From: a virus
Taxonomy: Duplodnaviria > Heunggongvirae > Uroviricota > Caudoviricetes
Direction: 5' to 3' (one strand)
DNA length: 64,000 bases
Virus record (IMG/VR): IMGVR_UViG_2721755655_000008
Made by a program: the position numbers. Positions 12,001 to 18,000 of this stretch are shown here, piece by piece. Every line of letters starts with the position of its first letter. The stretch's first letter is position 1.

Positions 12001-15000
12001 CGGGTTTTTGTTTTTATTTTCAACGCGTTTGAAGTTCCGGACGGCGCCGGAATAGAATCAAAAATACTTAAGTAGCGCGCAGGGAGAAGAGGGATGGACC
12101 CCGAACAGGGGAGTGCTATTTATCTGGAAGGATTCTGTTGATGAGAATCGAAGAATTACGTGAAATTTTTAGTGAAGATGGCCTCTATACTGTGCGCGTT
12201 GAGAAGGGCGCTATTGTCAGCCACTGCCGTATTAAATGTTTACAGTCTCAACAAAGGAAGAGTGGAGCTGCGTTAATTCATTTTGTGGATGGGCTTGTGA
12301 CGGATGGTTTTATTTTGCGTGCAAATGAATTTGTCACATCGTTGCCGTCTCTGAAAGAAGCTGGGATTAAGGCTGGTTTTTCTGCTTTTGAAGATTAGTG
12401 AATTCATCTACAATTCAGCGCAGGGCTGAACCCCTGTTGAGTAACACTGTGCCACCGGAGAAAGCCGATGGCGCAAAATTCCAGACTACACAATTCTGAT
12501 AATTCAGCCGTCTTTGCCAGCAGGCACGGGCGGCGTTCTCATGCATTCAAATCTGACTGGTTCCGGCACGCCCCATGCACTGAAGAACAGGCCGAATGGC
12601 TGATTCAGAACTACCGCAGACGTGGGTATGAGTTTAGGAAAGCCCTCAGCCTCGATTATCGTCACTGGATAATCTACGTCAGGCTGCCGTACTCCGAGCG
12701 CCCACCGCGTCCGTCCCGCACATTCCAGCAACGCATCTGGAGGTAACGTGCGGGTATTACTTCGACCTGTTCCGGTACCGGAACTTGGGGTGGTGGTCCT
12801 TAAACCAGGCCGTGAATCCATGCAGGTATTCCATAACCCTCGAGTGCTTGTGGAGCCGGAGCCGAAAAGCATGCGCGGTCTGCCGTCCGGCATCGTCCCT
12901 GCCGTTCGCCAGCCGCTGGCGGAGGATAAATCATTACTGCCGTTTTTCAGCAATGAGCGTGTGATTCGTGCTGTTGGTGGCGCTGGTGCACTGTCTGACT
13001 GGCTGTTGCGTCATGTCAAATCCTGCCAGTGGCCTCATGGTGACTATCATCACAGTGAAACCGTTATTCACCGTTATGGTACCGGCGCAATGGTGTTGTG
13101 CTGGCACTGCGACAACCAGCTGCGTGACCAGACATCCGAATCACTCGAGCAACTTGCTCATCAAAACCTGTCAGCATGGATGATTGACGTCATCGGTCAC
13201 GCAATAAGCGGTACGCAGGAGCGTGAATTATCTCTGGCTGAATTATCCTGGTGGGCGGTCCGCAATCAGGTGGCGGACGCGCTACCGGAAGCGGTATTAC
13301 GTCGTTCGCTGGGGTTGCGTGCGGAAAAAATCCGCTCAATGTACCGTGAAAGCGACATCGTACCGGGAGAGCAGACCGCCACCATCATACTGAAGCAGCG
13401 CACAAAAAATCTTGCGCCGCTGCCTCACGCCCACCAGCAAAACCCACCACAGGAAAAGACGGTGGTCAGCATTGCCGTTGATCCGGAGTCTCCGGAATCC
13501 TTCATGAAACGACCTAAACGTCGCCGCTGGGTAAATGAGAAATACACACGCTGGGTAAAGACACAGCCGTGTGCGTGTTGTGGTAAGCCAGCGGACGATC
13601 CTCATCATCTGATTGGTCATGGTCAGGGCGGAATGGGAACAAAATCCCACGATATTTTCACGCTACCGCTGTGTCGGGAGCATCACAACGAGCTTCATGC
13701 GGATCCGCTGGCGTTCGAAGAAAAGCATGGTTCCCAGGTTGATTTAATTTTTCGTTTTCTTGATCACGCCTTTGCGACTGGCGTGCTCGGGTAAAAGAGG
13801 TGACTGATGCTCATAGATTTGGTTTTACCTTACCCGCCGACGGTGAACACTTACTGGCGACGCCGTGGCAGCACATATTTTGTATCAAAAGCCGGGGAGC
13901 GTTATCGCCGGGCAGTGGTGCTTATTGTTCGCCAGCAGCGACTGAAATTAAGCCTGTCCGGACGGCTGGCAATAAAAATTATTGCAGAGCCACCGGATAA
14001 GCGTCGTCGTGACCTGGACAATATTCTGAAAGCACCGCTGGATGCGCTGACGCATGCGGGAGTGTTAATGGACGATGAGCAGTTTGATGAAATCAATATT
14101 GTACGTGGTCAGCCAGTATCTGGTGGACGGCTGGGTGTGAAGATTTACAAAATTGAGAGTGAGTGAGCGTAAATATGATATATCCGGAAATTACAGGCAA
14201 AAGCGGCGAACATTTACGCCTGAACACGCTGGAAGCAGTCTGGATCCAGGGGAAATTACGGATGTGGGGGCGGTGGTCGTATATCGGTGGGGGTAAATCC
14301 GGAAATATGTTTAACCGGTTACTGGTTTCGAAAAAGCTGACGAAAACAGCAGTTAATGAGGTTTTACGCAGCATGAAGAAATCCGGGCTGGAAAAACCGG
14401 AACTTGAGGCATTTTTTCGGGATATGACCAGAGGGAAGCAGAAGAGCTGGTTGTCACATTGTACAGACACAGAGGCGTTGATTATTGATCGCGTTATCAG
14501 TGAGGTGCTTGGGGAATATCCCGGGCTAATCAATATTCTCCGGCAAAGGTACGAAGGACGGGGAATGAGTAAGAGAAAAATGGCAGAATGTTTAAATCGT
14601 ACTCACCCGGAATGGTGTTTCAGCACATGTGAGAAACGTATTGCAGGTTGGTTAGCCGTGGCTGAACACATGCTTTATGTACCTATGCACGATTCATTTC
14701 GATAAAAAAAGCTTGCTTTTTTACGCAGAAACAGCTTGAATTCCTGTAAGCTTCGCAAAGCTGTATCGCGAGGCGAAATGCAAGTTTTTTCGCACAAGGA
14801 AGCCACCGGAAGGTGGTTTTTTTGTGTCCGTAATATACAGCAGCGCAATAAATTCGCTGGTGGTTATTAATACCGTTCTTTCAGGTTGCTGGCTTTTTCG
14901 ACAAGAGTTATTGGTGTGTCACGTTAACCGGAAAAGGGAAAAAGACATGCTGAAACAGCAGGATATGACAGAAACCGCCAGAGTGGTGTTTAATGAATTA

Positions 15001-18000
15001 AGCGTTACCGACCCGGCGACAGTCGGGGAGATTGCGCAGAATACTTACCTTTCACGCGAACGCTGCCAGTTAATACTGACCCAGCTGGTTATGGCGGGTC
15101 TGGCAGACTATCAGTTTGGTTGTTACAGACGCCTTCAGTCCTGAAGGCTTTTTTATTTGTGGTAAATGGGCGGCTGGTGGGTGTAAGGGGCACCCACCAG
15201 CCATCTGCTCATGCGTTGGGTTCACAAGCAAACCTCAGGCCCACTGCTTTGCGCAAAAGCAGAATGAGCCTATCAGAGACAGGCTTAATGATCCATGCTT
15301 AATACTGTAAAAATATCCAGTTGTGAGTTAATCAACGCCGACTGCCTGGAATTTATGCGGTCGTTACCCGAAAATTCTGTTGACCTGATAGTCACGGACC
15401 CGCCGTACTTCAAAGTGAAACCCGAGGGCTGGGATAACCAGTGGGCGGGTGATGAAGATTACCTGAAGTGGCTGGACCAGTGTCTTGCGCAGTTCTGGCG
15501 GGTGCTGAAACCTGCCGGAAGTCTTTACCTGTTCTGTGGCCATCGTCTGGCATCTGACACCGAAATCATGATGCGTGAGCGGTTTAACGTGCTGAACCAT
15601 ATCATCTGGGCAAAGCCGTCCGGACGCTGGAACGGGTGCAACAAGGAAAGCCTGCGGGCGTATTTCCCCGCCACAGAGCGCATTCTGTTCGCAGAGCATT
15701 ATCAGGGGCCGTATCGTCCGAAAGATGCCGGGTATGAGGCGAAGGGTAGGACACTGAAACAGCATGTGATGGCCCCGCTGATTGCTTACTTTCGTGATGC
15801 GCGCGCTGTCCTGGGGATAACGGCAAAACAGATTGCAGATGCCACAGGAAAGAAAAACATGGTGTCGCACTGGTTCAGTGCCGGTCAGTGGCAGCTGCCG
15901 AACGAAAGCGATTATCTGAAATTACAGGCACTGTTTGCCCGGGTGGCAGAAGAGAAGCATCAGCGGGGTGAACTGGAAAAGCCCCACCACCAGCTGGTGG
16001 ATACGTATGCCTCTCTGAACCGACAGTATGCGGAGCTGCAGAGTGAATATAAGCATCTGCGGCGGTATTTCGGTGTGACGGTGCAGGTGCCGTACACCGA
16101 TGTGTGGACGTATAAACCGGTGCAGTACTATCCAGGGAAACATCCGTGCGAAAAACCGGCAGAAATGTTGCAGCAGATAATCAGCGCAAGCAGTCGTCCG
16201 GGAGACCTGGTTGCAGATTTCTTCATGGGGTCGGGGTCGACAGTGAAAGCAGCGATGGCGCTGGGACGTCGTGCAACTGGCGTTGAACTGGAGACTGAAC
16301 GTTTTGAGCAGACGGTGCGGGAAGTACAGGATTTAATCATTCGTAACGGATGAGATTGCGGAGTTAATCATGCGTCGTTATTATTCAGCAATCGGCCCTT
16401 TAGCTCAGCGGTGAGAGCGAGCGACTCATAATCGCCAGGTCGCTGGTTCAAATCCAGCAAGGGCCACCAACCGCCACTAGCTCATCAGGAAAGAACGTCA
16501 CCCTGTGCGAGATTCGGAGTCCCCGGTGGCGGTCCATTATCGGTATTCTGCGTTGTTAGCTCAGCCGGACAGAGCAATTGCCTTCTAAGCAATCGGTCAC
16601 TGGTTCGAATCCAGTACAACGCACCACACCACACTTATCTGCCCTGACTCTCTTTTGCGGGCTTTTTATTACAGGAAAGACACCGGACAGTGAAATGTTA
16701 AATGCCTCACAATTCAGGCAGTTGACTGTTGCCTGACATGCTGAGCGTTTGTTAAAAAAATCCTGCATGATGAATCCCCCTGAGCGGCGGGGCATAATGA
16801 CAGATGTTTGGTTGCGTATTGTATAGGCAAGTTGCGGATTCTGTCTGGTCATTGCAGAATTCACCGGGAGGCACCCGGCATCATGCTGTATACAGAGATT
16901 AGGCATATATCCAGGCTTCTCATCGCAGGAGCCTTTTTACATGCAAAAAAAAGCCCGAGTGGGTTCGGGCAACAGCATGAGATACTTGCATTGTCATTTT
17001 TATCGTGTGGATTTTAACCAGGGTTTATAAGGCTGCGCAACTGCGCGGCCTTTTTCGTTTTGCGGGCTGCGGTTCTCCTCTTTTGATTCTCCTTGTGGCC
17101 GGACCGTGGCCCGCAACTGTTGAGGAAAATCCCGGAAAGGGGAGGAATAATGACATTTAAACATTATGATGTTGTCAGGGCGGCGTCGCCGTCAGACCTT
17201 GCGGAAAAGCTGACACACAAACTGAAAGAGGGCTGGCAGCCGTTTGGTAGTCCGGTGGCCATAACCCCTTATACCCTGATGCAGGTGATTACAGCAGAAG
17301 GTGATGTGGTGGTCAGTGGTGCAACTGAGCCGGATTGGTACTACGTCATCGTACTGGCCGGGCAGTCCAATGCCATGGCTTACGGTGAAGGGCTTCCGCT
17401 GCCGGATTCATACGATGCTCCGGATCCGCGCATTAAACAGCTGGCGCGCCGCAGTACAGTTACGCCGGGTGGGGCTGCCTGCAGATATAACGATATTATT
17501 CCGGCCGACCACTGCCTGCATGATGTGCAGGATATGAGTACGCTGAATCATCCGAAGGCAGACCTGAGCAAAGGGCAGTACGGCTGTGTCGGCCAGGGCT
17601 TACATATTGCCAAAAAACTGCTTCCGTATATCCCGAATAACGCGGGGATCCTGCTGGTACCATGCTGTCGTGGTGGTTCGGCATTCACCCAGGGCGCGGA
17701 GGGGACATTCAGTGCGGACGCGGGGGCCAGCCAGGATTCGGCGCGCTGGGGTGTGGGTAAACCGTTATATCAGGACCTGATTGCGCGCACTAAAGCTGCA
17801 TTACAGAAGAACCCGAAAAATGTGTTGCTGGCGGTGTGCTGGATGCAGGGAGAGTTTGACATGAGCGCCGCCACCCACGCACAGCAACCTGCGCTGTTTA
17901 CAGCCATGCTGGCACAGTTTCGTGCTGACCTCTCCGTGTTTAACGCGCAGTGCCATGGTGGCAGTGCTGCAGATGTGCCGTGGATTTGTGGTGACACGAC

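Follow-up and report, generated by a model that had tools for sequence, protein, structure and literature searches.

M.EcoGII and M.EcoGI from Escherichia coli O104:H4 C227-11 are beta-class DNA methyltransferases with a DPPY motif, a central target-recognition domain, and an FxGxG motif (PMC5778455). M.EcoGII, a prophage-borne orphan enzyme, methylates adenine in any sequence context, is silent in the lysogen, and is harmful when its expression is forced (PMC5778455). Non-specific adenine methyltransferases that are controlled by Com are known in Mu-like prophages (PMC3299994). In lysogens, the phage late promoter PR′ is constitutive, and transcription terminates at tR′ (PMC7547250). The locus analyzed here is the start of the late operon in a Caudoviricetes sequence, the IMG/VR record IMGVR_UViG_2721755655_000008 (64,000 nucleotides (nt), hereinafter the window), where an M.EcoGII-type methyltransferase gene is preceded by a 65-amino acid (aa) open reading frame (ORF) and a conserved structured leader, and is followed by a tRNA cluster and by the site that carries the Shiga toxin (Stx) genes in Stx phages. 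This late-operon start very probably consists of modules that are interchangeable with those of Stx2 phages, with late, Q-dependent expression and a methyltransferase gene locked by its leader. The region as initially posed is already known, given that Stx-like prophages lacking stx, the tRNA cluster, M.EcoGII-type enzymes, and the small RNA (sRNA) pair of the ‘moron’ site have all been described in print and the sequence belongs to a reference strain. The leader is the only apparently undescribed item of the region and is worth follow-up.

The methyltransferase of the window, like M.EcoGII, is a prophage-borne orphan, with no restriction gene found beside it. Its motifs are intact and arranged in the order typical of the beta class (DPPY, residues 35–38; FFMGSGST, matching FxGxG, residues 309–316). 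A comparison with M.EcoGII (the reference sequence was machine-read, with a few reading errors, from the PDF supplement of the SUPREM paper, PMC11551740) reveals 325 identical residues of 350 (93%), with the similarity extending across the target-recognition domain; the window protein is 3 residues longer and carries about 25 substitutions. The sequence METHYLTRANSFERASE shares 94% identity with the phage 1720a-02 enzyme, for which a very close similarity to M.EcoGII has been noted (Murray et al., PMC5778455). The target of the window enzyme is predicted to be adenine in any context and, as such, needs no discovery.

The spacer between the small ORF and the methyltransferase gene shows identity of 0.67–0.82, compared with 0.36–0.47 at synonymous sites of the flanking genes. 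A protein-coding interpretation of this spacer was ruled out by 1-nt insertions and deletions between lineages. A covariance model, R1, built from 37 sequences, has a single match in the window (positions 15154–15300, 142 bits). Among 149 viral loci that encode more distant relatives of the methyltransferase, the leader is found in 96, always on the plus strand and directly upstream of the gene, and in nearly all of these 96 the 3′ end of the match coincides with the start codon of the downstream gene. Searches of viral contigs with the Plesiomonas and Proteus homologs supplied the diversity in this set; a metagenome scan with the methyltransferase alignment returned just close relatives (82–98% identity) and added no diversity.

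Analysis of 69 distinct leader sequences reveals pairing in 86% of the cells, compared with 73% in shuffles and 29–45% with slid partners; 27 of the 39 leader pairs show changes on both sides, and the covariation score reaches 0.398, whereas shuffles score 0.179 and slid partners 0.04–0.08. In a structure-blind MAFFT alignment of closer sequences, two-sided changes are detected in 10 pairs where 3.6 are expected, a count reached by none of 500 shuffles. Furthermore, RNAalifold recovers helices P0, P1, and the base of P3 de novo from the most divergent alignment. Among the leader pairs, G.U combinations number 216 and A.C combinations 69, an excess which indicates that the structure forms in the plus-strand RNA. 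Counted from the AUG at 15295, helix P2 spans positions −2 to −12; it includes compensatory changes, and its support comes from the counts fitted to the model, from the closer sequences aligned with MAFFT, and from the folding of single sequences. The minimum free energy (MFE) fold of the leader has a z-score of −5.0 and, in the window sequence, pairs even the AUG. The leader of the window gene contains no visible Shine-Dalgarno sequence; leaderless relatives have an ordinary AAGGA Shine-Dalgarno sequence. An Rfam search with the leader identifies no family (the best match is P26, on the opposite strand, with 24 bits versus 36, and the rest are generic hairpins), and in the literature, the coverage of which was incomplete, no RNA motif is described upstream of M.EcoGII-type methyltransferases.

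These features suggest translational gating of a toxic methyltransferase in the manner of Mu com-mom. In that system, as would be the case here, a harmful adenine-modifying enzyme of broad specificity is produced only in the late phase, from a translation start hidden within RNA structure; in addition, in some relatives of the window module, a zinc-ribbon ORF resembling Com follows the leader, ahead of the methyltransferase gene. The two systems differ in that the window contains no Com gene (the weak Com-like ORF is present just in distant relatives), the window enzyme belongs to the beta class and is not Dam-like as the Com-associated methyltransferases are, and no sequence relation between the window leader and that of mom is detected. 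Tentatively, with a confidence that falls slightly short of even, positions 15154–15300 can be interpreted as an undescribed class of cis-regulatory RNA that silences a toxic, non-specific methyltransferase until a late signal opens P2, and that occurs widely among the lambdoid prophages of Enterobacterales, many Stx2 phages among them. Candidates for the opening signal are the co-transcribed small winged-helix protein discussed below, the Com-like protein with a zinc ribbon that some relatives encode, the methyltransferase itself, and S-adenosylmethionine or S-adenosylhomocysteine. If the leader does gate translation, it provides a simple, testable case of a phage holding a self-damaging enzyme off; it may also explain the difficult expression of such methyltransferase genes and represents a possible regulatory part.

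The 65-aa ORF upstream of the leader belongs to phrog_331 (2e-37) and shows 95–98% aa identity to its counterparts in Stx2a, Stx2d, and Stx2e phages, where the DNA is 85–92% identical; the version that occupies the same place in a Stx2c phage is only 50% identical. Comparison with Kluyvera yields identity of 0.89 and 0.90 at codon positions 1 and 2, respectively, and 0.44 at position 3. Given the family membership, the conservation of the protein, and the faster divergence at third positions, this ORF is a real gene. On weak Pfam matches alone, its product is probably a winged-helix protein; there is also a weak TrmB match (17 bits). The AlphaFold2 model, obtained without an alignment, consists of 3–4 helices with a pLDDT (predicted local distance difference test) of 65, and a Foldseek search of PDB with this model detects no match below E = 1. 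Outside Escherichia, an M.EcoGII-like gene lies downstream of the small ORF in 18 of 20 genomes from other genera (including Kluyvera, Salmonella, Citrobacter, Buttiauxella, Klebsiella, Proteus, Mangrovibacter, and Plesiomonas), and the spacer between the two genes is nearly constant (147–152 nt in nearly all of these genomes).

Strict linkage between the leader and the small ORF was rejected: of the 149 viral loci, 36 contain both, 60 the leader only, 33 the ORF only, and 20 neither, with the ORF counted by tblastn, which misses divergent ORFs. At least two of the 60 leader-only loci carry a divergent winged-helix-like ORF. The 33 ORF-only loci, in which the leader model finds no match, have a shorter spacer (e.g., L329, L331, and L336, at about 1400–1500; also L345, L350, and L356); some of these retain the P0/P1 domain alone, whereas in others a plain terminator is combined with an AAGGA Shine-Dalgarno sequence. 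In a few distant relatives (L274, positions 1362–1487; L272, L276, and L292), the leader runs up to the ATG of an ORF of 41 aa for a four-cysteine zinc ribbon that overlaps the start of the methyltransferase gene and is weakly similar to Mu Com (19.2 bits, with a cut-off of 22.9). Immediately 5′ of P0, at 15159–15168, there is an invariant motif, TGTG(A/G)AAAT, that resembles an extended −10 element and could be a separate promoter for a transcript of the leader and the methyltransferase gene.

Beyond the methyltransferase gene, the first-pass annotation had recognized the architecture of a Stx-phage late region without stxAB, which is borne out: a blastn search for stx across the 64-kb window identifies no match, tblastn gives chance matches only (E ≥ 0.1), neither stxA nor stxB lies between the tRNA cluster and the esterase and holin genes, and the breakpoints of homology bracket stx2AB exactly. 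The gene order in the Stx2a phages Stx2_EH2201 (LC567829) and Stx2a_1447 (AP012536) and in the Stx2e phage phiP27 is the 65-aa ORF, a 352-aa methyltransferase, ileZ-(argN)-argO, stxAB, STnc100, the esterase (where present), and the holin; these phages and the Stx2c phages share the order of the window, with 85–92% nt identity over positions 14849–16667. The small ORF, methyltransferase gene, and tRNAs of the window recur in the Stx2d phage LC567830, in phage 1720a-02 the same genes lie upstream of a disrupted stx2A, and in the Stx2c phage the methyltransferase is 86% identical to the window enzyme. In contrast to these phages, the window lacks stxAB and has a Q/tR′ module of the DUF1133 type where they have a 126-aa Q. 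The small ORF, the methyltransferase gene, and the tRNA remnant had been taken to be carried instead of stx; this does not hold, inasmuch as the small ORF, the methyltransferase gene, and the tRNA cluster accompany stx in Stx2a, Stx2c, Stx2d, and Stx2e phages, and the identical remnant lies upstream of stx2c in Stx2c phages. The presence of the small ORF and the methyltransferase gene upstream of stx in Stx2 phages identifies them as companions of the toxin genes rather than substitutes. The position of a predicted M.EcoGII-type methyltransferase upstream of stx in many Stx2 phages bears on the crossing of restriction barriers.

The homology with Stx2 phages starts right after tR′ (14815/14849) and extends to 16667, that is, 56 nt before stx2A, and the homology with Stx2a phages resumes at 16707, 45 nt after stx2B, so that the 1341-bp stx2 cassette of LC567829 corresponds to 39 nt in the window. 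The H-19B region downstream of stx1B aligns 14 nt further upstream, which leaves about 22–25 nt that derive from neither flank. The unoccupied argO-STnc100 junction is shared with the stx-negative phages and prophages vB_EcoP_phi296 (933W-like), TL-2011a, PPwrbA_EH2201, Lahn2, Nil3, and Sp9 of Sakai, and, among 5426 complete E. coli genomes, is found in 484, frequently as two copies per genome, including O55:H7, O111, O121, and O145. In contrast to the window, phi296 has an intact argN, and its methyltransferase gene is reduced to a 99-nt remnant. We read this junction as a conserved, unoccupied ‘moron’ site and not as the scar of a recent deletion.

In the proposed mechanism, the region is made up of the following modules: Q with its terminator, the small ORF and the methyltransferase gene, ileZ-argN-argO, the empty stx site, the convergent, Hfq-dependent STnc100/EcOnc03 pair, nanS-p, and the lysis genes. 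By analogy with lambdoid and Stx phage biology, transcripts from the late promoter would end at tR′ in the lysogen. Upon induction, Q would drive read-through of the terminators at 14827, 15157, 16934, and 17052, and the methyltransferase, tRNAs, esterase, and lysis genes would consequently be expressed late only. The methyltransferase would then modify adenines of the replicating phage DNA without sequence preference, thereby blunting restriction in the following host. A further lock would come from the leader (about 130 nt), the pairing of which with the 12 nt that precede the AUG (and here the AUG as well), with no Shine-Dalgarno sequence, would occlude the start site.

The conserved spacer of about 150 nt could, in principle, be a DNA element, namely a promoter together with operators for the small winged-helix protein, or a separate sRNA gene, rather than a cis-acting RNA. 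The −10-like motif next to P0 is compatible with the former possibility, as is the likely DNA-binding fold of the small ORF product suggested by the weak matches; moreover, palindromic operators covary too. However, the predominance of G.U over A.C pairs favors pairing in the plus-strand RNA, the helices are long and nested, with one long-range helix stopping 1 nt before the AUG, the distance from the leader to the start codon is fixed, and the leader occurs in the 60 loci for which tblastn finds no small ORF homolog (at least two of these with the divergent winged-helix-like ORF). No terminator is present at the 3′ end of the leader. Both variants appear improbable relative to translational gating by a cis-acting leader. 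Several observations nevertheless weigh against the combination of Q-dependent late expression and a leader-locked, non-specific methyltransferase. The strongest covariation comes from an alignment fitted to the structure of the model, a fit which favors that structure; RNAalifold, when run on the most divergent alignment, misses P2 and inner P3; and the 33 viral loci that lack a model match do contain both the small ORF and the methyltransferase gene. The non-specific activity of the window allele is deduced from 93% identity, and the antitermination activity of the Q-like protein from family membership; a PDB sequence search with this protein identifies nothing at E ≤ 0.01. A consensus promoter scan of the interval from Q to tR′ detects no sigma-70 site, so that PR′ is placed by its position. 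Finally, the prophage may be defective, and its expression is predicted from sequence.

The other two alternatives concern the missing toxin genes and the time of methyltransferase expression. The loss of stx from lysogens does occur, and both flanks of stx2AB are present and collinear in the window, as would be expected had a former Stx phage lost stxAB and left the 25–39 nt at 16668–16706 as a deletion scar. Under that scenario, the same junction, including about 22 nt absent from both the Stx1 and the Stx2 flanks, would have to arise also in phi296, where the sequence of the empty site is only 82.6% identical, and in O55:H7, O111, O121, and O145 genomes; a junction shared by diverged phages would not be recreated by independent deletion. 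Furthermore, the points at which the spacer is interrupted differ slightly between stx1 and stx2, and no residual stx fragment is found, which makes the deletion scenario distinctly unlikely. The point of stx insertion is accordingly fixed to a spacer, about 25 nt long, which diverged phages conserve in the empty state and which can be used as a marker of stx gain and loss. As for the methyltransferase, the first-pass annotation had offered both protection against host restriction and an epigenetic role. Given that M.EcoGII methylates non-specifically and is not expressed in lysogens, protection during lytic growth is plausible for its 93% identical relative, and epigenetic action in the lysogen is unlikely. 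The latter would require expression in the lysogen with an effect on host genes, and indeed, the gene is intact and conserved, and phage-borne M.EcoGIII changes host gene expression (PMC6602927). Nevertheless, M.EcoGI, M.EcoGII, and 92–93% identical homologs from O111 Stx-producing E. coli, which are listed as non-specific, give no methylation signal in lysogens, and forced expression is harmful (PMC5778455, PMC6602927); the window gene lies behind two intrinsic terminators with its start region predicted to be sequestered; and non-specific methylation is unable to carry site-specific information. Epigenetic control of the host through this gene is therefore very unlikely, still less probable than the loss of stx, and lytic protection by a late enzyme is the preferred interpretation.

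The features of the region are listed in Table 1. All those named in the first-pass annotation are present at or within a few bases of the positions it gave.

Table 1. Predicted features of the late-operon start, in window coordinates
Feature	Position	Strand	Basis
Q-like late antiterminator, DUF1133 family	14175..14705	+	Pfam, PHROG
Presumed PR′/Q-utilization region	14706..14791	+	Position between Q and terminator
tR′-like intrinsic terminator	14792..14827	+	16-bp hairpin and U tract
65-aa conserved small ORF	14947..15144	+	phrog_331
Second intrinsic terminator	15131..15157	+	Hairpin 15131–15148 and T run (terminator scan); seen in MFE fold
Conserved structured RNA leader of methyltransferase gene	15154..15300	+	Covariance model R1
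Leader helix P0	15166–15171/15207–15212		
Leader helix P1	15172–15183/15191–15202		
Leader helix P2	15220–15229/15283–15293		
Leader helix P3	15238–15250/15256–15270		
Orphan beta-class N6-adenine DNA methyltransferase, M.EcoGII family (predicted non-specific)	15295..16353	+	PF01555
ileZ-type tRNA, anticodon CAU (RefSeq tRNA-Ile)	16394..16469	+	ARAGORN; Rfam 70.9 bits
argN pseudogene (tRNA-Arg UCG, anticodon loop deleted)	16470..16536	+	Alignment with Stx2a-phage argN
argO tRNA-Arg (UCU)	16550..16626	+	ARAGORN; Rfam 71.4 bits
Unoccupied stx insertion site	16668..16706	.	Collinear flanks on both sides
STnc100-family sRNA with own terminator	16736..16944	+	Rfam RF02076, 175.2 bits (gathering 47), model 1–206
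EcOnc03, Hfq-bound short sRNA, AgvB/AsxR class	16946..17005	-	Exact 51-nt match at 16949–16999
Additional terminator-like hairpin before esterase gene	17029..17062	+	Terminator scan: 10 pairs, 7 G-C
nanS-p-type sialate O-acetylesterase homolog	17150..19003	+	Pfam DUF1737, SASA, DUF6645
Class II holin, phage 21 S type	19153..19368	+	PF04971 at 8.5e-33; RefSeq annotation

The Q-like protein matches DUF1133 in Pfam (1e-110), Phage_antitermQ, PF06530 (35.2 bits, with a cut-off of 26), and PHROG 753, “anti-termination protein Q-like”; phages that are about 75% identical carry the same gene annotated as Q, and homology with the Q-bearing phages continues for about 70 nt beyond the stop codon of Q. 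Assignment to the Q21, Q-lambda, or Q82 structural type was dropped with no PDB match to support it. The tR′-like hairpin has a 16-bp stem, the 3′ arm of which enters the U tract (UUUUUUUGUGU), and the 91-nt segment that contains it has a fold z-score of −3.8. Thus, the typical layout of a lambdoid or Stx-phage late operon is found here, with a Q-family gene directly upstream, a strong tR′ terminator, and a downstream lysis cassette on the same strand (holin, lysozyme, and Rz-like genes). As noticed previously, the 65-aa ORF lies between two terminators, the second of which overlaps its stop codon. The hairpin that holds this stop codon is retained in other genera; in all genera examined (loci L008–L028), the stop codon is located in or beside the loop of the hairpin (15131–15148), so that a terminating ribosome would melt it. 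The T run that follows this hairpin is weak outside Escherichia. The consensus promoter scan detects no promoter of the methyltransferase gene either.

The tRNA-like remnant reported between tRNA(CAT) and tRNA-Arg(TCT) is real and corresponds to a decayed argN. Aligned with intact argN from Stx2a phages, it shows a 12-nt deletion that removes the anticodon loop together with the 3′ half of the anticodon stem; a single inserted nt in the T arm and several substitutions are also present, and the 8-nt spacer after ileZ has been lost. Neither ARAGORN nor the Rfam tRNA model calls it, and its fold is no better than that of shuffled sequences. The same allele, 100% identical, is found in a Stx2c phage directly upstream of stx2c, and argN of phiP27 carries a different lesion; hence argN decay is recurrent and unrelated to the absence of stx. 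A mosaic joint is apparent at 16353–16394 (L008, positions 4190–4231), where the tRNA cluster is identical to that of Stx2c phages and the adjoining methyltransferase gene is only about 85% identical.

The STnc100-family sRNA, also located just after stx2B in Stx2a phages, would by coordinate arithmetic overlap EcOnc28 of Sakai. The convergent sRNA is EcOnc03, for which the reference sequence was taken from the supplement of PMC4104026, where Hfq binding is reported for it. Convergent sRNAs at the ‘moron’ site are described in Sp3, 4, 5, 9, 10, 11, 15, and 17 (PMC4104026). EcOnc03 has the same position and orientation as AgvB and AsxR (Tree et al. 2014), convergent with STnc100, and shares with them a conserved 3′ part of about 42 nt. 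The match to the Rfam AgvB model, RF02702, is marginal (56.6 bits, gathering 56), and the 5′ region, which reads CGAUAAAAAUGACAAUGCAAG, lacks CACAACA, the mimic of the GcvB R1 target/seed; therefore, EcOnc03 is not AgvB but a sibling of AgvB and AsxR. The same supplement lists an abundant Hfq-bound sRNA, EcOnc12, in Sp9 about 5 kb past EcOnc03, which would place it at an estimated 21970–22020 on the minus strand of the window, just 3′ of the YlcI/YnfO gene. The esterase gene downstream of the sRNA pair shows about 70% nt identity to yjhS/nanS-p of Stx2a phages.

Many E. coli O157:H7 chromosomes, that of EDL933 (NZ_CP008957.1, positions 1,856,834–1,859,934) among them, match a 3.1-kb segment around the start of the late region with 100% identity, and the window starts with an integrase gene adjoining ompW. 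These matches identify the region as the promoter-proximal portion of a late operon, that of the well-studied, cryptic lambdoid prophage located beside ompW in EDL933, which is equivalent to Sp9 of Sakai, given the exact match to EcOnc03 and its placement in Sp9 in the supplement of PMC4104026. In two genomes, NZ_CP114130.1 and NZ_CP173115.1 (strains NJS001 and STEC799), IS1203 splits the otherwise identical segment 14100–17200. The early region contains cargo at about 9977–11429, which according to RefSeq comprises a frameshifted fimbrial gene and a gene for the Paa adhesin, followed by hokD. Two sok antitoxin RNAs are detected in the window (11618–11767 and 63192–63366), along with DicF RNA on the minus strand (55931–55982). 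The second sok and DicF, about 40 kb further on, suggest a second prophage-like segment in tandem.

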